Assembly: GCA_964439345.1 (NCBI GenBank)
Contig: CAYTNS010000002.1
Location: 26,797 to 90,796 of the forward strand
Origin: an uncultured Christensenella sp.
GTDB taxonomy: Bacteria > Bacillota > Clostridia > Christensenellales > UBA1242
Reading direction: 5' to 3'
Length of the DNA stretch: 64,000 nucleotides
Both the position numbers and the translations under genes were made by a program. The notes beneath the pieces are model-generated. The model had not been told where the DNA came from. It made no database searches and saw nothing but the letters and a program-made list of their open reading frames with translations. This document shows positions 1 through 10,354 of the stretch, one piece after another (position 1 is the first letter of the stretch; each line of letters opens with the position of its first letter).

Positions 1-2035
1 CTGCCTCTTTTTCACGATAGTAATCAAATACATTTTTGATAGTATTAACATCACAAACACCGGCTAGATTACCTAGAGTATTTGCCCCTGCCTGAGCCTC
101 AATAGCACCTATAAATTCCTCAGCGCTCTTTCCACTCTTTTTAAAGCCATCATATAGTTCAGCAACGAAATTATTGCCTTCCTCTAACATTGTGATTGCT
201 CTATCCTGCATAGCATAAGCTTCCATAGCACTCTCAAATGTCATATTATTTGGTAGTGCAACACCTAGCGAATAAGGGCCTACATCGGGAAGCATATCCA
301 CTTTAGCTACATGTTGTGCACCGTTTGAAGGTTCTTTTGGCTCATTTTGAGTTTCTTCTTTTTCAGCCTCTTCTTCTGGCTCTTCTTGCCCGGCAGTCTT
401 TTCCATCTCGCCCGACATAAATTTACTGAAATCTTCTTTTGTAAGCCAAGCCTCACCCTTGTCATCTACTAGGTCATCATTTAATATGAGTTCGCCATTT
501 TCAAATGAAATATGTTTTGCTAGTTCCTCATAGAATCGTTTGGAATTTAATTCGCCATTTAGTACATGAGGACATCTCATTTGAGCAGTCTTATTCTCTT
601 TTAGCGATTCATTAACTAAAGAATGTAATGCCTGATATTGAGTAAGCAATTCATTTTTCTTTTGCAATTCTGCTATGGACTTAGATAAACTAGCTGGAAT
701 TGCTTGTCTAGATTGCGTATAAAGGTTTGCTCTCTCCTGCAAAGAAGTAAGCATACCTTGATATTTATCACTTATAGCCTGTGCAGCATTTTCATTGGCA
801 TCAGCTAAATCTTGAGCCCTATCTACTACACTCTCGTGATAAGCCTCTATTTTGCCTACTCTTCTACGATTCATAAGAGTATTAGAAGCATCAGATGTTA
901 GCATTCCTGCATAATCTGGTACTTTTCTTAAATTGACAAATCCTCCCCTCTCCAATTCAGTGACATTTGCCTTAGCAACACTAGCAATTCTTAAATCATC
1001 AAGGAATAAATCTGGATTTCTAGACATATTGTAGGCTTCCCATTCTGGGGAATCTACACTAAATTGCCTTTGAGCTCTAAGCAATACTTCCTTATCCAAT
1101 CTTCTTTTTGAGGTATTGCCAATCAATTCTTTTTCTACAAAGTATGTAAATAGTCCCTTAGGAGTAATTGTTTGTGCTTTTTTAGTTTCAATCGCCGATT
1201 TTATTGATTCAATTTTCTTTTGTTGCTTAGCAATATCGCTCTCCGATGGAGCATACATTCCACCAGCCTTTAGGTTATCCCTCATATTGCCTAAGATTTC
1301 TTCGGCTTCGGCTAGTTCCCTTTCTTCCTTTTCGTAAGAAACGCCACCAGTACGAATGTAATTATTTATAAATGATGTAGTCGCCTCACGCGAAATTCTA
1401 GCATATTGAACTACACCACTAGCATCTTTGTATGGTAATCCACCATTAGGAACTTCCTTTACCTCAAAAGTGCCATCGGCTTTTTTAGTAATATCCATTC
1501 CCATATAGGCAAATGCCGATAACAAATCTTCATTTGGGTCTTTACTTATAGAAGGCTCAGGGACTTCGCTCTTTTTTACATCTTCATTAGCAAATGTAGC
1601 CATATGAAGAGCACTAGCCATTTTATCGAACCCTCTAAGGCCTTTTAACCAATCTTGATATTCGGCATTAAGGGAATTGTGTTCACCTTTTATACTCTTA
1701 AATTTAGATAGGTGCAAATCAAAAGACCTGATTAAATCGTCGTACGCTCTAGCTTGTGCTAGGTCTCCACCCATCGCTTTAAATCTTTCTATAGCTGATT
1801 CACTTGGGTGGGTAAGTCCTTTTAACCCATCAAAGATATTACGGTCTTCACCTGTTAACTGGTCTCCAACAGACTCATAGTGCAAATTAAGTCCACCCAT
1901 TATTGATTCTATCGTGTTACCACGAGCAGACATAATTTTATCGACCGATTCTTTTAGTTTATCTTTAGCCTTAACAAAAGCACCAGCCTTTTTTACTGAG
2001 GAGATATCTGCCATTTCTTCAAATATTTGTGCCAT
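1..2035 (-). CDS. Large hypothetical protein, truncated by the window edge (678 codons visible); last visible gene of the T4SS-like cluster
   Basis: Absent from the ORF track because its stop lies left of position 1. Manual minus-strand translation from the ATG at 2035-2033 (MAQIFEEMADISSVKKAGAFVKAKDKLKES...) met no stop down to position 1. An AGGAAGGA RBS sits at 2043-2050, 7 nt upstream. An acidic E-rich patch occurs near nt 330-420. No TM segment, signal peptide or catalytic motif was recognised. Confidence 0.7.
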   Translation of the reverse strand, partial: MAQIFEEMADISSVKKAGAFVKAKDKLKESVDKIMSARGNTIESIMGGLNLHYESVGDQLTGEDRNIFDGLKGLTHPSESAIERFKAMGGDLAQARAYDDLIRSFDLHLSKFKSIKGEHNSLNAEYQDWLKGLRGFDKMASALHMATFANEDVKKSEVPEPSISKDPNEDLLSAFAYMGMDITKKADGTFEVKEVPNGGLPYKDASGVVQYARISREATTSFINNYIRTGGVSYEKEERELAEAEEILGNMRDNLKAGGMYAPSESDIAKQQKKIESIKSAIETKKAQTITPKGLFTYFVEKELIGNTSKRRLDKEVLLRAQRQFSVDSPEWEAYNMSRNPDLFLDDLRIASVAKANVTELERGGFVNLRKVPDYAGMLTSDASNTLMNRRRVGKIEAYHESVVDRAQDLADANENAAQAISDKYQGMLTSLQERANLYTQSRQAIPASLSKSIAELQKKNELLTQYQALHSLVNESLKENKTAQMRCPHVLNGELNSKRFYEELAKHISFENGELILNDDLVDDKGEAWLTKEDFSKFMSGEMEKTAGQEEPEEEAEKEETQNEPKEPSNGAQHVAKVDMLPDVGPYSLGVALPNNMTFESAMEAYAMQDRAITMLEEGNNFVAELYDGFKKSGKSAEEFIGAIEAQAGANTLGNLAGVCDVNTIKNVFDYYREKEA

Positions 2036-2112
2036 AATATTATCCTTCCTAATTGTATATTTGTATTAGTAATCTAAAATGTTATAGCAAAATGTAATCT
2101 TAATACACTTAT

Positions 2113-2141
2113 ATTATATCATAAATACTACGCATTTTCAA
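2113..2141 (-). promoter_or_regulatory. Sigma-70-type promoter for the edge-truncated gene
   Basis: The minus strand reads TTGAAA (2141-2136), a 17-nt spacer, then TATAAT (2118-2113), inside the 129-bp gap after the 1645-aa gene. Confidence 0.5.
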
Positions 2142-2164
2142 GACCTACATTTTGCTAAAAACAC

Positions 2165-5100
2165 CTAAAATACTATTTGCTCCGACTTCTTCCTATCAAA
2201 GAACTTTATAAACATATCTTTGATATTAGATACGGCAGATTTGTAGAAACTATCACTATTTAATTTAGCATAAACATCTTCTACCGTTTTTGCACTCTTT
2301 AGCCCTTCTAAAACGGTCGATATGGTCTCACCTAATTCTAGATAAGTGCCATCATCGGAAAGGGTGGAGAATTGCATAATTAGGTTTACGCCCAATTCCT
2401 CCGAACTTAAGTCCAAAGCAACATCTTTTATATCTTTGGCAATTTCACCTAGGTGCTGAGTATTTTTAAGTTCATTTATAATGTAATCAAATGAATCGGT
2501 CTCCTCGCCCCTATTCATAATGGTTCTGAATATATATTGCTGTAATAATCCCTTGATATTACATCTAATAGTCTGTCCAATAGGCAATTTAATCTCAAAT
2601 GTACTTACATCTGCATCTTCACTGATATTTCCCACAATATCTAGTGCCTCTGCAATCCCCTTCATATCTTCTTTTAGCAGTACATCATCTTTGCTATCTA
2701 GCGCCTCGTAGAATCCCTGCCTAATTCCAGCATAGATGATATCTATATTGTGCACATCTGCACCTACTGATTTATCACTATAATGTTTTTCCTCAGGAGC
2801 ATCTACAAAGTCTACATTGTCTCTAGAATTTTCATCTACAACTATATCTAATTCAAAGTATCTAGCAGTCTCAATCTCGTAACCACTTAGTCTAGCACTA
2901 TCCTTTATCTTATCTATTAGATAGGTTCTCATATTTTTCTTGACTTCGTCAAATTCTTTGATAAATTCCTTAGTTGCAATCCTTTCATCTTTCTCAAATT
3001 CTGACATCATTTGAGTTAGAGCATAGAATCTAAACGAATTCATATACACATTAATCATCTTTCTAGGACTAGTAAGCTCGGGGTGAACTTCGCTATTATC
3101 TTCCGATTTGGCTATAAAATCGCCCTCAAGTTTATCTATAGCTGACCTCTTTTCCTCAGGATATCTAGATTCAAAATCAGATATCATATCTATTTCTTCT
3201 ACTATGTATAGCATCTTATTGGCATATATTAGATACTGCTTGTCCAATTTTTCCACAAAGTCTTCGTATCTATCCACCCTCTGGGTCATAATGCTCCTAA
3301 TAACCGATGTTATCATACTAATAGTATTCTCATCTAAGCCCTTGAAGAAATTATTGATTTTCTGCAAACTAAGCATATTATTATCATAAAAATCTTCTTT
3401 TAATTTGGTCTTATTAGGGTCAATGCCGTACTTTTTGCCAAATGCCAATTGCAAAGCATACTCTTTGGCTTTTTCCTTGCTGACTAAGAATCTTTTCCTT
3501 AAGAACCAAGTATCGTCCTCATAATCTGATGGTTGCATATCGTCACTAACTACGATATTTTCTGTTACTTTGCTATCTACCTTTTTAGTAGCACTAGCAT
3601 TGTAATCTAGCCTCAAGGCATCTACCATATTCTCCATAAATTTCACCCCACCCTTTAGTGGATTTGGCTTAATTCTTAGGAGAATTTTATTATTAGCACC
3701 ATTGAATGGATATAATGTTCCGAATAGATTGGTTACATCATTATCCAATTCATCAAATAATGCACTATTTCTCTTAGTAAGTAATAAATTTTGTTCGTAA
3801 GATAATGTTCTACCCAACCTTAATATCTCATCGGCTAATTCCTTTTGACCGAAGTACACATTCCTAGGATAAGAGGTTAATCCTCCATCGGTAGAATCGT
3901 TTTTATCAATAATAACATTTTGAGCTGAAATTGAGAAACTCAAATAGTCTAGCATTCTAGAGTAGATGGCATCACTATCTAGTTGTACCATAGGCAATTC
4001 TTTCGACTCTAATTTGCCTATAAGTGTATCAACATAATTTTGCTTCATCTTGCCCGAATACTTCTCGTAATTTCTAGCAGTTTGGGTATCTCCTGTAATA
4101 ATCTTGGCTAGACTGCCTAGCATATTAAGAGCGACCTCTAGTCCATCTCTGATACTCTCTGGCAACCCACTATCAATATCACCATTGATTCTATTTTCAA
4201 TAATTATCTTTAATAGGTCAAAATCAATGCTACCCATTATCTCATCAAAATCTGATGCCACTAGCGAACTAGCAGTCTTATCTATATGCCTCTCTAGTGC
4301 TGGGGCTATATTTTTATTTAGATCAATGCTAGATATTACACTATCGTCTACTGTTACATTTGACCTACCAAGGCTTACCTTTAATGCACGGCACTTTAGG
4401 TCGGAGATAATATCATCGGCTGTAGCCTTTGCCTCAATTTTACCCGTAATATACGCATTTAGTAGGTTCCCCTTGGTCTCTACTAGGTAACTATATCTTT
4501 CGTAAGTAGCGAATGCCTCTAGGCTATTGCCATATACATTCACACCATCTTTTTGATAAGCCACTAGATATGGGATAATAGATGGCTCTACCCCACCCAT
4601 ATCATTATCTGGCATATTTACATAGTTTGTATCAACTGGGAATATATCAATATTACTTGCCTTTTGCGATGGGGTCTCTTCCTCGTTAGTAGTGGTCTCA
4701 TCATCAATATCAAGAGAATCAATATCGGTAGTCTCCGTCTCCCCCTCATAACCTAGCATTTGAGAGAATATATCATCACCCTTAGCTGGAGCATCGGCTT
4801 TGGTAAAGGTAATATCTGCCTCGGGATTTTCCTCCTCAGCAGTAGTAAATACTACACCCTTTCTCCTCTCCAATTCCCTCTTTTTATCTTCCAAAAGCAA
4901 TTCAATTAATTCTCTGGTCAAATCATTATCTAAGCCCAATGAATTAGTATTACTGCCTTGTGGATAAACAGGGGTCGTTTGTGGATTTGCCACTTGTGGA
5001 TTCTGAACTTCTACTACATTAGGAGTTGCCACATTTTGCATAGGAGCTACTTGAGCACCACTAGCATTAGGAGTAGTAGCACTTAGTGCAGATAGATTAT

Positions 5101-7102
5101 CGGCAATTTTTTCTAGAACCTCGGGATTAATCTCCTTAGTTAGCTTAACTCCATTTGTAGGCTCAACTGTATCTGTAGCCCTAGAAGCATCTAATTTTCT
5201 TAGTTTCTTTTCGTAATCTTTTTGGACTTTTAATTTCTTTAATTCTCCCCTAATATCGCCAAAATCGCCATTAATTTCGTTTACAAGTTCGGCTTTGGAT
5301 TCTGATTTTTGCTCAGTCTTAGGGGTTTTATTTATATCCTCTGCGTGGGCATCTTGAGAATACTGCTCACTGCATAATTTCTCAATTTCTTTGTCTATCT
5401 CGATTAAAGTATATTGCTTTTTGATAGCCTTTTTATCTTCCACACCATTTAATTCTATCTTGCCTTTCTCAATCTTTAGGGTTGGCTCTACTACCTTAGA
5501 TAATGTCGCCTTAATAGAATTTACGATTTCCTCGGCAGGAATAGGTTTTTTAAGAAGTTTTGCCCTCTCCTTTTTAAGAGCTATATCGGTATCTAATAGA
5601 GTATCATAGTACTTAGATAAGCATAGTACACGCCTAAATTTATTCCTGCTGGATAAAAAGTCACTATTAGCCTTTTTGTACTCTTCCGAATTTAATTTAT
5701 CTTGAACTTTTTCTAGTTGCTTTTGATAAAATTTAATCTCTTTGGAATTATCAGCTGTGGTGTCTTTAGAAAGCCTAGCAATCTGACTCTCGTAGTCATT
5801 CTTCTTCTCTAAATATCCACCCCTTTGCTCGTCTAGAACTCTATGAATTTTACTCTTCTTCATATAATCCACAGCTAGTTCGTCGGTTACTTCACCCCTG
5901 TAGGATTTAAGCTCTTGCAAAGTGCTATGTAGTGCACTAATAGCTCTAAAGGATATATCTTCTAGCCCCTCTAGATACTTAGCCTCATCACCCAATTCAT
6001 TTAGGTCTACATCTAAGCCAAAATCTTTGGAGACATTTCCAGCCTTATAGTCAGGATTATTTATCTGCTCCTCACTTAGTACCCCGTTATCATTGACAAC
6101 ACCCGATAGCGATGAGCCTATAACCATCTTTTTGGCTAGTTCATTGTGAGTAACTTTATTTGTCTTTTTCTCTTCCTCTGGCTCGTGCTCTTTTTTGAAA
6201 GTCTGCCATTTTTTTGAGTGCCTACTGTAATTTTTGATTACATTCTTAAAGTACACAGTTGGGTCTTTGAAAGTTAGTGCCGAACCGAATAATTTCTTTA
6301 AGTCCTCCACACTGGCTGTAGATATGCCTAGGCTCTCCTCTGCTTCTCTAATATAATCGGCAAAGACCTGACTGGCTGTAATAAACTTTCTAGATTCAAT
6401 TGGCTTATTCAAAAATTCATTTATGTACTTATTGCAGGTCTTTTTAGATAAAGCAAAAGATTTCTCCGATTTACCCACAAAGTACTTAATGCCATTGCCA
6501 TTCCTATTTTTTACAATGCTATATGTGCCTAGGTCGTCTTTCTCGATAGTAACACCAACATAATTAAGAGCATTCACTATATCCCTATCCTGCTCGTCCT
6601 TACTTTTCTTGCCCTTAGTAGTAGACTTTTCTTCATCAGATGGCATTATAGCGCCCTCTATATCAGAGGCAGTGTGCAAGTCAATATGGCTAAGAGTTTC
6701 CTTGGTATTTAGAATTGGCAAATATTTCTTAAGAGCCTCGTTATAAGCCTCTACCTTCTTTATCTCAATAGACGCATCTTTGCCGTCAGATAGTAGAGAA
6801 GAAATAGTGTGTAGTAGATTGCCTCTCCTATTTAGAATTTTAACCACTAGCCTAATATCCTTAGGTAGCATACCCGTCATATATTTTAGCTCGGTTGGCA
6901 AAATTCTGTACGACCTATCTACGTTTTCTGGCTCGGCAGTTTTATCCGATTTTTTCTTCTTATCGTAATTTTTTATGTAATTCTTAATAAGCAAAAGAAG
7001 CCTATCCTTATCGGTAGGCCACGAAAACCAAGTATGTGAAAATAATTCACACCCTTTTTTACTTATTTTTTTTACTTCCATTTTTCTATTTTTTATAACC
7101 AC
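2165..7102 (-). CDS. Giant hypothetical protein (1645 aa), soluble, function unknown
   Basis: Uninterrupted ORF with a GTG start at 7102 and a GGAG RBS 6 nt upstream. The N-terminal half is K/E-rich and coiled-coil-like. A Q/P/N/V-rich stretch then a D/E/T-rich linker is encoded around nt 4660-5100. No Walker A, HExxH, relaxase His-triad, LPXTG, TM or signal peptide was seen by eye. Confidence 0.85.
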   Translation of the reverse strand: MVIKNRKMEVKKISKKGCELFSHTWFSWPTDKDRLLLLIKNYIKNYDKKKKSDKTAEPENVDRSYRILPTELKYMTGMLPKDIRLVVKILNRRGNLLHTISSLLSDGKDASIEIKKVEAYNEALKKYLPILNTKETLSHIDLHTASDIEGAIMPSDEEKSTTKGKKSKDEQDRDIVNALNYVGVTIEKDDLGTYSIVKNRNGNGIKYFVGKSEKSFALSKKTCNKYINEFLNKPIESRKFITASQVFADYIREAEESLGISTASVEDLKKLFGSALTFKDPTVYFKNVIKNYSRHSKKWQTFKKEHEPEEEKKTNKVTHNELAKKMVIGSSLSGVVNDNGVLSEEQINNPDYKAGNVSKDFGLDVDLNELGDEAKYLEGLEDISFRAISALHSTLQELKSYRGEVTDELAVDYMKKSKIHRVLDEQRGGYLEKKNDYESQIARLSKDTTADNSKEIKFYQKQLEKVQDKLNSEEYKKANSDFLSSRNKFRRVLCLSKYYDTLLDTDIALKKERAKLLKKPIPAEEIVNSIKATLSKVVEPTLKIEKGKIELNGVEDKKAIKKQYTLIEIDKEIEKLCSEQYSQDAHAEDINKTPKTEQKSESKAELVNEINGDFGDIRGELKKLKVQKDYEKKLRKLDASRATDTVEPTNGVKLTKEINPEVLEKIADNLSALSATTPNASGAQVAPMQNVATPNVVEVQNPQVANPQTTPVYPQGSNTNSLGLDNDLTRELIELLLEDKKRELERRKGVVFTTAEEENPEADITFTKADAPAKGDDIFSQMLGYEGETETTDIDSLDIDDETTTNEEETPSQKASNIDIFPVDTNYVNMPDNDMGGVEPSIIPYLVAYQKDGVNVYGNSLEAFATYERYSYLVETKGNLLNAYITGKIEAKATADDIISDLKCRALKVSLGRSNVTVDDSVISSIDLNKNIAPALERHIDKTASSLVASDFDEIMGSIDFDLLKIIIENRINGDIDSGLPESIRDGLEVALNMLGSLAKIITGDTQTARNYEKYSGKMKQNYVDTLIGKLESKELPMVQLDSDAIYSRMLDYLSFSISAQNVIIDKNDSTDGGLTSYPRNVYFGQKELADEILRLGRTLSYEQNLLLTKRNSALFDELDNDVTNLFGTLYPFNGANNKILLRIKPNPLKGGVKFMENMVDALRLDYNASATKKVDSKVTENIVVSDDMQPSDYEDDTWFLRKRFLVSKEKAKEYALQLAFGKKYGIDPNKTKLKEDFYDNNMLSLQKINNFFKGLDENTISMITSVIRSIMTQRVDRYEDFVEKLDKQYLIYANKMLYIVEEIDMISDFESRYPEEKRSAIDKLEGDFIAKSEDNSEVHPELTSPRKMINVYMNSFRFYALTQMMSEFEKDERIATKEFIKEFDEVKKNMRTYLIDKIKDSARLSGYEIETARYFELDIVVDENSRDNVDFVDAPEEKHYSDKSVGADVHNIDIIYAGIRQGFYEALDSKDDVLLKEDMKGIAEALDIVGNISEDADVSTFEIKLPIGQTIRCNIKGLLQQYIFRTIMNRGEETDSFDYIINELKNTQHLGEIAKDIKDVALDLSSEELGVNLIMQFSTLSDDGTYLELGETISTVLEGLKSAKTVEDVYAKLNSDSFYKSAVSNIKDMFIKFFDRKKSEQIVF

Positions 7103-7202
7103 AGTTTTCTCCGTAAATATAACAAATCAAATTTAATATACTCCCCTATATGAGGCTAAAATTTACACCTCATATAGTAGAATATCTTTATATTCAAACT
7201 AA

Positions 7203-9890
7203 TTAATATTCAGTTTGAAGTGCTTTTAAATAATTAGGGTTATTAAATAATTCCTTAGTTGTATTAAGTGCTTCTATCTGTACAGTTGTTCTATTCATAG
7301 GACCTGTAATCAAGAAACACTGACCACGACCGGCTGTAACTATGGAGTTCTGCTCCTCCTCATTTATACCACCGGCATTTCTATATAGAGTGATAAGGTC
7401 ATTGATATCGGCTGGGGCTAGTGACATTATTATAGAATACTGACAGGCATTGATAACGGCTGTAGATTGCTGAGCAATTTCTTCCGAACCAACGAAGTCT
7501 TTGATATTCTGTGTAATGATTATTAGCATTCCACTATATTTTCTTATACGTTTAGCCATCTGCGCCATAAAGTCTAGCGCTATTGGGAATTTCTTATTGA
7601 TAAATACGTGCGCCTCATCAACTGCACATATAACTCTACGCTTATCCTCTTCGGCAGCCTGTTCACCGATGTACTTTAGGTTAAAGTCACGGTTCTTGAT
7701 AATCTCGGCATCTAGGTACTTAAATACTAGTAACATCTGCGCATTAGCGATAATATCATTTCTATTGGAAATAAGTGTACGGAAGGAGAAACATATAAAG
7801 TTCTCATTGGTTTCAACAGATGTGTAACCATTCCATAGGTTGGAGTTACGACCACCTGTACCGAATTTCTCAATAAACATTCTAACTGTCTGCAAATTTT
7901 TGTAGTGATACTCATTGGTCTCCACCTCTAGCATATCATCAACCATTTGAATTAAATCATCAAATATTGGGAAATCACTAGGCTTTAGGTCGGCAACATT
8001 GACCGTACTATCTATGCCAAATTTTCTGTAAAGAGTAGCAATCAAGGAGTTCAACATCTCAAAGGCATCGGTATTGATACCCGGTAATATCAGTCTAAAG
8101 AATTGTTCCATAAACTGCAAGTGCTCATTGAAGGCATCGGTCGATTCACCCGTTTCTGCCTCAAGGGTTGCGTAAATATGGAAAGGATTAAAGATACCAT
8201 TGGTAGAGTTACCTACGTCAATTATCTTACCACCTAGGTTGTGACAAAGTATCTCGTACTCATTCTCGGGGTCAAGAATAAATACACGGGTATTATCTGC
8301 TGCGAAATTGGTAAGCAAGGTCTTGGTACAATACGATTTACCCGAACCAGATTTACCTATAACCATCATATTACTATTAACTCTTTCATTGTTTCTAGCA
8401 AAGAAATTTGCAAATACTGGATATTGATTGTATCCAATGTAAATACCTCTATCATCGTGCAAAGTGGTAGATACAAATGGGAAACATGCAGCAAGGGAAG
8501 ATGTGTGTATTCCTCTGCCATAAGGCTTAGCTAGGGTATCTAGTCTAGAAATATTACTAGATATAAATCCATCTACTTGTCTAGCGAAGTTCTCGGCGAA
8601 TTTGAAACCATTCTGTCTAAGAACTGCCCTAACCTCTTTTTTAACGGCATCTTTGGCTACAATATGAATAGTTGTATTGTAAAGCTGCTCATTTGAACCC
8701 TTGATACCTTTCAAAAGTTCTTTTAAGGTCTCAATGTGTTGCTCAACGTCAATCTTTTCGGAGCTACGCATATTTTTCTGTTGTTTAATCTCCATCTCCA
8801 TCAAAGATTTATCTAGGTCTTTTTCGGCCCTGTATCTATCTATAGGAGATATATTAACTACTACCCTACTCTCATCTAGAGCAAATAGTGGATATGCCCA
8901 CGCATTAGGTACTTCGATAGGATAATCGGTAATGGAGAATATTCTGTATTTCTCACCATCAATTTTGGTGGTCTTTAGGTCAAATCTAACTTCATCGGGA
9001 TAAGTCCACGCAGCCTTTTCGTTTAGGGAAAGAAGTTCAATCTCTCTTTCGTCAAAGTTACTGCAATAGGTAGACTTCATAAATACATATAGCTGGTCAC
9101 CTGTAACAATCTCGGTGTAAATAGGAGTAACCGAACTTTCAAGCGTACTAACTATACCATTTACAGTATTATTAAGTGCGTCTCTATCGGTATCGTAGAT
9201 AACCATATAGTAGTGGTCCTTAATAATCTTTTCGGTATCATTCATAAATTTAATAGCCTGTAACCTTTCGTCAAATACTGGGCTACGGCTATCTAGTTCG
9301 GCTGCCGAATAGAAACCTTTTTCGTACATATCATTTAGGACATTGAATCTATAGTCCTCGTACTTAGCCATATCATCTAGTACCATTGGCTTCTTTACCT
9401 TGACAATACTACACTGCTGATTTAGGTTAAGTCTCTGAATAGCTGTAGCAAAAGCATTGATAGTCATATCCTGCTTATCTTCGGTAAGCAATCCAAATGA
9501 CATAGGATATATCTCAATTACACTACCATAGTACTCACCGAATTTTAAGAATCTATCGGTATTGATATCATCGAATGGCATAATATTTTTAATATTCTTG
9601 CTACCAGTAGCTTTCTTGGAATAATACTTATTGTATGCCATAAATTTAAAGGATAGGAATAAGGCATTGTACATTCTTAAGTTATCGCCCATCTCCAAAA
9701 ATAACATAGCATAAGCACCAGCAAAGAATAGCGCTGCATAGATATTGTACCACATCTGACTAAACATATTGGTAGTGGCAATTAGCACTGCTATAGCTAG
9801 ACCTATCAAAATAAATATAGCATCTAGGATAGTGAAATTCCTAAATATTGTTACTTTAACTTTGGTCCTTCTAGGAATAAATCTCATCAT
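7203..9890 (-). CDS. VirB4/TraE/TcpF-type conjugal-transfer ATPase with an N-terminal VirB3-like two-helix membrane module
   Basis: Walker A is MVIGKSGSGKSY and the Walker B-like motif is ICAVDEAHVF. The 895-aa size is typical of VirB4. The N-terminus (KVKVTIFRNFTILDAIFILIGLAIAVLI...YAALFFAGAYAMLFL) resembles VirB3/PrgI/TcpE-type modules. Confidence 0.85.
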   Translation of the reverse strand: MMRFIPRRTKVKVTIFRNFTILDAIFILIGLAIAVLIATTNMFSQMWYNIYAALFFAGAYAMLFLEMGDNLRMYNALFLSFKFMAYNKYYSKKATGSKNIKNIMPFDDINTDRFLKFGEYYGSVIEIYPMSFGLLTEDKQDMTINAFATAIQRLNLNQQCSIVKVKKPMVLDDMAKYEDYRFNVLNDMYEKGFYSAAELDSRSPVFDERLQAIKFMNDTEKIIKDHYYMVIYDTDRDALNNTVNGIVSTLESSVTPIYTEIVTGDQLYVFMKSTYCSNFDEREIELLSLNEKAAWTYPDEVRFDLKTTKIDGEKYRIFSITDYPIEVPNAWAYPLFALDESRVVVNISPIDRYRAEKDLDKSLMEMEIKQQKNMRSSEKIDVEQHIETLKELLKGIKGSNEQLYNTTIHIVAKDAVKKEVRAVLRQNGFKFAENFARQVDGFISSNISRLDTLAKPYGRGIHTSSLAACFPFVSTTLHDDRGIYIGYNQYPVFANFFARNNERVNSNMMVIGKSGSGKSYCTKTLLTNFAADNTRVFILDPENEYEILCHNLGGKIIDVGNSTNGIFNPFHIYATLEAETGESTDAFNEHLQFMEQFFRLILPGINTDAFEMLNSLIATLYRKFGIDSTVNVADLKPSDFPIFDDLIQMVDDMLEVETNEYHYKNLQTVRMFIEKFGTGGRNSNLWNGYTSVETNENFICFSFRTLISNRNDIIANAQMLLVFKYLDAEIIKNRDFNLKYIGEQAAEEDKRRVICAVDEAHVFINKKFPIALDFMAQMAKRIRKYSGMLIIITQNIKDFVGSEEIAQQSTAVINACQYSIIMSLAPADINDLITLYRNAGGINEEEQNSIVTAGRGQCFLITGPMNRTTVQIEALNTTKELFNNPNYLKALQTEY

Positions 9891-10097
9891 AATCGTGTAT
9901 CTCCATTTTTCACATAATACATTTGCATCTAGTTATCTGCCCTAGCGCCTATAAAAATACTACAAGCACCTAGTAATTTTAATCATCAAACTCTTCTCAT
10001 TTATTTTTTGAAAAAAGTCCACAAATAATGCAAATATACACTTATATATTTTAGTATACTATAATCGCCCAAATTAACAAAATATTTTAGCCAAATT

Positions 10098-10300
10098 ATT
10101 TATAATTTATTATAAATAAAAATGAAGCGTAATTTATAATTGTTATAAATGAAAGCAAAAGTGGCGTTTATATTTGTTATAAATAAAGCAAAAGCAATGT
10201 TTACGGCGATTAAAGATAAAAATGTTAAAGATATTTATAATTATCAAAAACAAAAATAAAGACATTGTTTGTAGTTGTTATAGAAAAAAATAAAAGTCCT
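10098..10300. repeat. About six degenerate tandem repeats of 33-34 bp, three of which have a perfect or near-perfect palindromic core
   Basis: Units start at about 10099, 10133, 10167, 10200, 10234 and 10268. The cores are ATTTATAA-ttta-TTATAAAT (10098-10117), ATTTATAA-ttg-TTATAAAT (10132-10150) and gTTTATAt-ttg-TTATAAAT (10166-10184). Each core is followed by AAAGCAAAAG-like sequence. Confidence 0.7.
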
Positions 10301-10354
10301 GCACACACGAAAATATTCTCCCTCAAAATACCTACTAACTTACCCAATTGCATA

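Follow-up and report, generated by a model that had tools for sequence, protein, structure and literature searches.

The question raised by this locus is what a tandem array of AT-rich inverted repeats does between two genes of a type IV secretion system (T4SS) cluster. The preliminary description had offered an operator, a plasmid-type centromere, a set of replication iterons or an oriT-accessory region, and had proposed cooperative binding of a protein along regularly phased sites. We examined these possibilities in the whole 64-kb stretch of DNA in which the array lies (hereafter, the window) and in the equivalent regions of related genomes.

The array occupies part of a 580-bp gap (9891-10470) that is indeed non-coding, as no credible ORF was found in it. 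This gap does separate a membrane-protein gene from the virB4-like gene, but its description needed to be corrected for orientation: the flanking genes are all on the minus strand, and the array is downstream of a terminator and upstream of the virB4 promoter. Along the direction of transcription, the order is 883-aa gene, terminator, array, promoter, leader and virB4, with the following elements:

10471-13122, minus strand: gene for a fast-evolving polytopic membrane and coiled-coil protein (883 aa) that fits no Pfam family
10358-10395, minus strand: strong intrinsic terminator of the 883-aa membrane-protein gene, with 18-nt arms, bounding the array distally
10053-10080, minus strand: sigma-A-type virB4 promoter, with -35 TTGTTA (10080-10075), a 16-nt spacer and -10 TATACT (10058-10053)
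10023-10038, minus strand: box TATATTTG(C/T)ATTATTT, located 15-30 nt past the -10 in the inferred leader of virB4
9911-9900, minus strand: virB4 ribosome-binding site GAAAAATGGAGA, invariant in the four-taxon alignment described below
7203-9890, minus strand: virB4-like ATPase gene (895 aa; Pfam TraG P-loop, DUF87 and AAA_10), the first gene after the promoter

The terminator RNA folded with -21.1 kcal/mol (z = -5.9) and is followed by a U-run. The arrangement TTGTTA-N16-TATACT had a single match in the 64-kb window, and its -35 is sub-consensus (4/6 matches). With the start site set 7 nt past the -10, transcription of virB4 would begin at about 10046, which would place the array at about -52 to -254 and the centre of its proximal palindrome at about -61.5, and would leave about 155 nt for the leader, at the end of which is the ribosome-binding site. 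In the leader box, the TATATT and ATTATTT runs were invariant in the window and in three sister loci (L001, L002 and L135), and the box might act as another operator or as an RNA element of the leader; searches of the window for Rfam RNA families and tRNAs were negative. The virB4 leader of the window also contains an insertion of about 70 nt (9905-9975) that is not in L001, L002 or L135. The virD4 promoter of the same cluster (16468-16496, plus strand) displays a perfect consensus, TTGACA-17-TATAAT, unlike the sub-consensus virB4 promoter, and sits in a block, about 60 nt long, without variation among the window, L001 and L002. A near-dyad at 16488-16505 was considered as a second member of a regulon and rejected, since it corresponds to the -10 box of this virD4 promoter within the conserved block.

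The array was confirmed as a real succession of six tandem units of 33-34 bp at 10098-10300, in a region with 19% G+C (about 35% for the window). Autocorrelation at lag 34 gave z = 5.4 over 10098-10300, a value that none of 500 dinucleotide-preserving shuffles reached, and the periodicity was present in each half separately (10098-10199, z = 4.9; 10200-10300, z = 4.3, P = 0.006). TRF, for its part, reported a period of 34 with 84% matches at 10133-10203. A coding origin of this periodicity was rejected, because 34 is not divisible by 3 and the region holds junk ORFs only. The dyad motif, ATTTATAA-N3/4-TTATAAAT, is carried by units 1 to 3 and decayed in units 4 to 6, as detailed here:

10096-10119, minus strand: promoter-proximal 24-bp palindrome TTATTTATAAT-NN-ATTATAAATAA, with 11-bp arms that are 100% complementary and a 2-nt centre
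10098-10131, minus strand: unit 1, with a perfect dyad at 10098-10117 (4-nt spacer)
10132-10165, minus strand: unit 2, with a dyad at 10132-10150 (perfect 8-bp arms, 3-nt spacer) centred at about -95
10166-10199, minus strand: unit 3, with a dyad at 10166-10184 (14/16 arm positions, 3-nt spacer) centred at about -129
10200-10300, minus strand: units 4 to 6 (starts at 10200, 10233 and 10267), decayed copies of the 34-bp unit

Of the three dyads that had been placed in the array, the first two are perfect, but the third has two mismatches, both in the left arm (one mismatch to a 7-bp-arm pattern). The first one, described as an inverted repeat with 8-bp arms, actually belongs to the 11-bp-arm palindrome at 10096-10119. 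The other three units had rightly been called degenerate: units 4 and 6 are so, and unit 5 retains the left arm only. A purine-rich tail, AAAAATRAAG or AAAGCAAAAG, is common to all six units, which indicates that the entire 34-bp unit was duplicated and not the dyad alone.

When the units were compared with one another, units 1 and 2 were identical at 16/16 arm positions and at 9/19 of the remainder (Fisher p = 0.0005), which suggests that the second site has been maintained. For units 1 and 3 the figures were 14/16 and 10/19 (p = 0.03), and in units 5 and 6 the arms were kept no better than the non-arm positions (unit 4, too degenerate, was left out of this comparison). On these grounds, unit 2 is likely to be a maintained auxiliary site and unit 3 is possibly functional, and the array reads as two, perhaps three, putatively maintained sites plus three relics. 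The 34-bp period amounts to 3.2 helical turns, so that successive sites face different ways, and the spacer of the distal dyads has 3 nt, as against 4 nt in the ancestral, conserved form. This period and the shorter distal spacers, together with the decay of units 4 to 6 and the presence of a single dyad in the sister loci, speak against the phased cooperative binding along the array that had been proposed.

An AT-rich dyad might simply be a frequent word in AT-rich DNA, a possibility that the preliminary description had raised against itself. The 8-mer half-site was not over-represented in the whole window (22 observed versus 19 expected), and 6 of the 22 copies were inside 10098-10240. The full dyad, with at most one mismatch in total over the 8-bp arms, occurred nowhere in the 64-kb window other than in the array, and in 1.89 Mb of related AT-rich loci the perfect dyad was found solely at the corresponding position of L001, L002 and L135. 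Being thus confined to one equivalent site, the dyad is not a common AT-rich word. It does count against the operator model that chance occurrences of 8-bp palindromes are none too rare in pure A/T sequence. The 19 IMG/VR matches to the 24-bp palindrome, mostly in giant-virus MAGs, were taken as chance in AT-rich DNA, and the occurrences of the half-site words in the literature were chance primer matches only. A reading of the palindrome as a dif or recombinase core site was also rejected (no skew switch and too short a central region).

VirB4 relatives were obtained from at least 210 confirmed stretches of uncultured gut Clostridia (Christensenellales-type) MAGs, of which 80 loci were kept, and further ones from metagenomes and a large protein collection. 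No VirB4 above 94% identity was found by exact-protein look-up or in GTDB, JGI/ENA metagenomes and a 5.8-billion-protein collection, the best match being 81% in the JGI/ENA metagenomes and 92% in the protein collection. The sister loci L001, L002 and L135 (VirB4 identity to the window of 94%, 93% and 92%, respectively) had no array and carried one dyad each, at the position of unit 1 of the window; to judge from these sequences, the array itself is lineage-specific. Comparison of the homologous intergenic regions therefore had a double outcome for the preliminary description, since the proximal dyad turned out to be conserved but the array did not.

Both 11-nt arms of the palindrome were invariant in the window, L001, L002 and L135, and the centre varied (AA, GA or TT). 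In the four-taxon alignment, only the ribosome-binding site surpassed the arms as an invariant non-coding run (8 nt for the -10 and 6 nt for the -35). At 4-fold degenerate virB4 sites, the window was 55-59% identical to the three sister loci. With silent sites near saturation, the invariance of 22 positions in four lineages is incompatible with neutrality, and the alignment clearly shows that purifying selection acts on the arms of the proximal palindrome. Between the dyad and the -35 there were 17 nt in the window, as opposed to 27 nt in L001, L002 and L135, in which the centre of the palindrome would be at -71.5 from the inferred start. The shift is thus of exactly 10 bp, that is, one helical turn, so that the same face of the helix is kept.

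The promoter was more widely distributed: its -10 core, GTATACT, was invariant in eight relatives, and the TTGTTA-N16/17-TATACT architecture was also found upstream of virB4 in more distant loci. In L003, L134 and L136 (VirB4 90-92%) the promoter was kept and the dyad of the window was absent. These three loci displayed another AT palindrome at about the same place upstream of the -35, and a further one was found in L137 (VirB4 84%):

L003 at about 640-665, L134 at 208-230 and L136 at 842-865: palindrome ATTAAAAT-N2/3-ATTTTAAT
L137 at 2176-2197: palindrome TTAAATATAT-TT-ATATATTTAA, at the position of the dyad upstream of the -35

Differing palindromes among sister clades imply either that the element turns over fast or that AT palindromes generally matter; accordingly, they could stem from turnover of the operator along with a regulator that co-evolves with it, or from a generic preference for palindromes of this AT type. 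In much of the clade with about 80% identity (L004-L007, L009 and L012), virB4 came directly after the upstream gene, without a promoter. A G+C-richer repeat family with GTCATTCTGA[AG]...GAAGAATCTAGAAC-like motifs filled the region upstream of virB4 in several relatives (L003, 1-560; L134, 1-180; L136, 350-800; L010, upstream of virB4), and may represent mobile elements of small size or repeated palindromic ones. Upstream of virB4, the density of TRF arrays of period 25-45 was about 3-fold that of the remaining non-coding DNA, a result that varied with the strand searched. In the recurrent arrays of other lineages the dyad of the window was not found, the repeats being unrelated low-complexity AT repeats, and because of this and of the strand-dependent TRF detection we gave little weight to upstream arrays as a conserved feature.

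We believe that the proximal dyad is very probably a functional protein-binding site, and we lean towards the view that it is an operator for a dimeric regulator of the virB4 promoter, amplified by tandem duplication. Its symmetry, its distance to the promoter (from an inferred start site) and the conservation of the arms over the spacer are all those expected of an operator. Thus, the operator of the preliminary description seems right for the promoter-proximal dyad, a palindrome under selection in four lineages and held at a phase-keeping distance, but not for the array as a whole. According to this model, a dimeric sequence-specific protein would bind the palindrome at 10096-10119 and would, once bound, control the sigma-A-type promoter of the virB4 operon. 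The regulator would more likely activate from upstream, in a class-I-like manner, than repress by steric hindrance; activation is favoured because the site is wholly upstream of a weak -35, lies at class I distances and keeps its helical phase over a 10-bp indel. In the lineage of the window, the operator-bearing 34-bp segment would have been tandemly duplicated to six units, in which unit 2, and perhaps unit 3, would retain intact half-sites as auxiliary or reservoir sites that add occupancy, units 4 to 6 being presumably decaying relics. We infer the start site, the binding of a protein to the palindrome, the sign of the regulation and any function of the distal units from the features described above. 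No gene for a small HTH or RHH regulator was found by Pfam in the cluster or in the 64-kb window, in which WhiA, a ROK protein and an RsgI-like protein were the only regulator-type proteins.

It is possible, if somewhat doubtful, that the proximal palindrome alone matters and that the array is a neutral by-product of replication slippage or unequal recombination in a very AT-rich spacer, functionless as an array. The single copy in the sister species would agree with this, as would the decay of units 4 to 6, with arms in units 5 and 6 no better than the tails, and the fact that the same cluster has other lineage-specific repeat expansions and long spacers (15587-15688 and 13385-13420). Moreover, unrelated lineages commonly have arrays of period 25-45 in the AT-rich DNA that precedes virB4, and the ones examined were either dyad-less (L038 and L015) or accompanied by unrelated AT palindromes elsewhere in the spacer. 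The arms of unit 2, however, with all their positions kept beside a remainder that has lost about half of them, are hard to explain without selection, unless a gene conversion limited to the arms is invoked.

We consider it unlikely that the AT palindromes work through DNA structure or non-specific architectural proteins instead of a sequence-specific regulator, and the same holds for the candidates that could be named for such a role, namely UP-element-like contacts of the RNA polymerase alpha subunit, intrinsic bending, and HU/IHF-like or nucleoid proteins. The low G+C of the region would suit them, the AT palindrome at a similar distance from the -35 is a different one in each of three sister clades, and there is a TATAAT-like hexamer in each arm. 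Nevertheless, elements of this kind tolerate substitutions, whereas 22/24 positions are invariant here despite near-saturated silent sites. In addition, the dyad was displaced by one exact turn instead of holding the UP position, and the UP-element stretch (-40 to -60) is filled in the relatives by another AT-rich sequence, which argues for a protein site dependent on the helix face and not for an UP element.

The remaining readings depend on the nature of the cluster, which spans positions 1-18690 and runs off the left end of the window. It looks like a chromosomal T4SS without a detectable relaxase, and comprises a divergent virD4, two PF18895 pilin genes, the gene of the 883-aa membrane protein and virB4, with further proteins of 1645, about 1190 and about 350 aa that belong to no Pfam family. 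On the right of virD4 there are housekeeping genes (tmk, a P-type ATPase gene, nrdD, pheST, argS and cell-envelope genes, and also sufBC, pfk, dnaE, whiA and murB). With these housekeeping neighbours, and with no integrase detected by Pfam in the 64-kb window, the locus is chromosomal and not on a mobile element. The cluster has a parallel in the recently described Patescibacteria T4SS with PF18895 pilins (PMC12102498), and our search of the literature found no paper that describes this T4SS in these Clostridia, nor any on its regulation or role.

VirB4 and VirD4 were 90-94% identical to those of the closest relatives (L001 and L002). The genes that diverge from L001 and L002 are at 2165-7102, 10471-13122, 13700-14014 and 15886-16215 of the window; identity was 54-59% for the 1645-aa and 883-aa proteins (54-56% for the latter) and 73-80% for the pilins, and the putative surface parts of the machine thus appear to evolve very fast. 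A second, unrelated array at 15587-15688 (period 32, 3.2 copies, core ACTGGAATTTTGTGAT on the minus strand) lies just upstream of a DUF4143/AAA_14 ATPase gene (14162-15508, minus strand). This gene is between the two pilin genes in the window only; L001 and L002 do not have it, and it would thus seem to be a lineage-specific insertion, with a repeated motif of its own upstream. The spacer between the gene of pilin A and the 883-aa gene (13123-13699) measures 577 nt (about 190 nt in L001), and an 11-nt repeat occurs in it at 13385-13420. As far as these alignments go, the non-coding DNA of the cluster seems generally expanded in the lineage of the window.

With a T4SS that appears chromosomal and relaxase-less, the array could be imagined as its dedicated DNA recognition platform, where a putative protein bound to the repeated dyads would link this DNA, or the expression state of the machine, to the secretion apparatus. 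We regard this as very improbable; if true, it would make the array the functional counterpart of oriT or of a centromere in a lineage of uncultured gut Clostridia. A milder reading is more likely, namely that the amplification of the activator site would be a lineage-specific tuning of a fast-evolving, surface-exposed T4SS.

The weakest reading is that of an oriT or oriT-accessory region for the T4SS, a sopC/parC-like centromere or a set of iterons. It draws on the position of the array within a T4SS cluster that encodes a VirD4 coupling protein and on the likeness of dyad-bearing tandem direct repeats to sopC of plasmid F and to some oriT accessory sites; tandem repeats with dyads are present indeed (six units, dyads in three). 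Against it, no relaxase was found by Pfam among the window ORFs or the proteins of the fuller L135 cluster, even at E <= 1, although a highly divergent relaxase may have escaped this search, and no integrase, Rep, ParA or ParB family was found in either; a weak CbiA match fell inside the P-loop region of VirB4, and the 64-kb window had no parA/parB or parM/parR genes. The context is one of chromosomal housekeeping genes, and relatives of this virB4 are spread over the at least 210 gut Clostridia MAG stretches. The array is not conserved in the closest relatives, as L001, L002 and L135 have one dyad and L003, L134 and L136 none. The single-stranded fold of 10090-10300 was ordinary (z = -0.97, weak A/T hairpins only), the cumulative GC skew was monotonic over the window, with no inflection or switch, no DnaA box was seen on reading 9891-10470 by eye, and the whole spacer, used as the query of a blastn search in distant mode, had no match in a plasmid collection. 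OriT, centromere and iterons each fail in their defining features, so that these proposals of the preliminary description are not supported and we hold them to be barely credible.

Operators and tandem amplification are already known, and what is new here is an uncharacterised instance in an uncultured lineage. The array is probably just an amplified operator, of modest general significance, and the surrounding T4SS is arguably more interesting than the array. Being conserved and set at a defined distance to the promoter, the 24-bp palindrome provides a concrete bait for the regulator of virB4 and a handle on when the T4SS machine is expressed.

Several known systems can be compared with this locus. 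The sopC centromere of plasmid F is built of twelve direct repeats of 43 bp, in each of which SopB binds an inverted repeat with 7-bp arms, and it shares with the array, as parC/parS arrays do, the formal layout of tandem repeats of tens of bp with a short dyad. In contrast to sopC, the array of the window is chromosomal, lies between a terminator and a promoter without partition genes, is not conserved in sisters and has half of its units decayed. Lrp/AsnC-type nucleoprotein arrays, such as those of ilvIH and pap, comprise a number of palindromic AT-rich sites spaced by about three turns of the helix, and AT-rich dyads every 30-34 bp or so upstream of a promoter are also what is seen here; the differences are that the window has no Lrp/AsnC gene, that the motif is unlike the published Lrp consensus and that the repetition is lineage-specific. 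Multi-site operator arrays are also known at conjugation or T4SS promoters of Gram-positive elements, bound by Rco of pLS20, PrgX of pCF10 and ImmR of ICEBs1, regulators whose genes lie on mobile elements beside the operators and which for the most part repress, frequently through looping. Like these, the window has repeated sites upstream of the main T4SS operon promoter, but it has no adjacent regulator gene, a single ancestral site, and a chromosomal T4SS without a detectable relaxase. The proximal site can also be likened to class I activator sites upstream of sigma-70 promoters, for example the CRP site at -61.5 of lac, CRP being also active from -71.5, -82.5 and -92.5. The palindrome differs from these in a sequence unrelated to the CRP/FNR box, in a host known from low-G+C Clostridia MAGs, in a start site that is inferred in the window, and in extra copies that are out of helical phase. 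It has in common with them a palindrome suited to a dimer, placed wholly upstream of a sub-consensus -35 and centred at -61.5 or -71.5, and a one-turn displacement between species that preserves the helical face.
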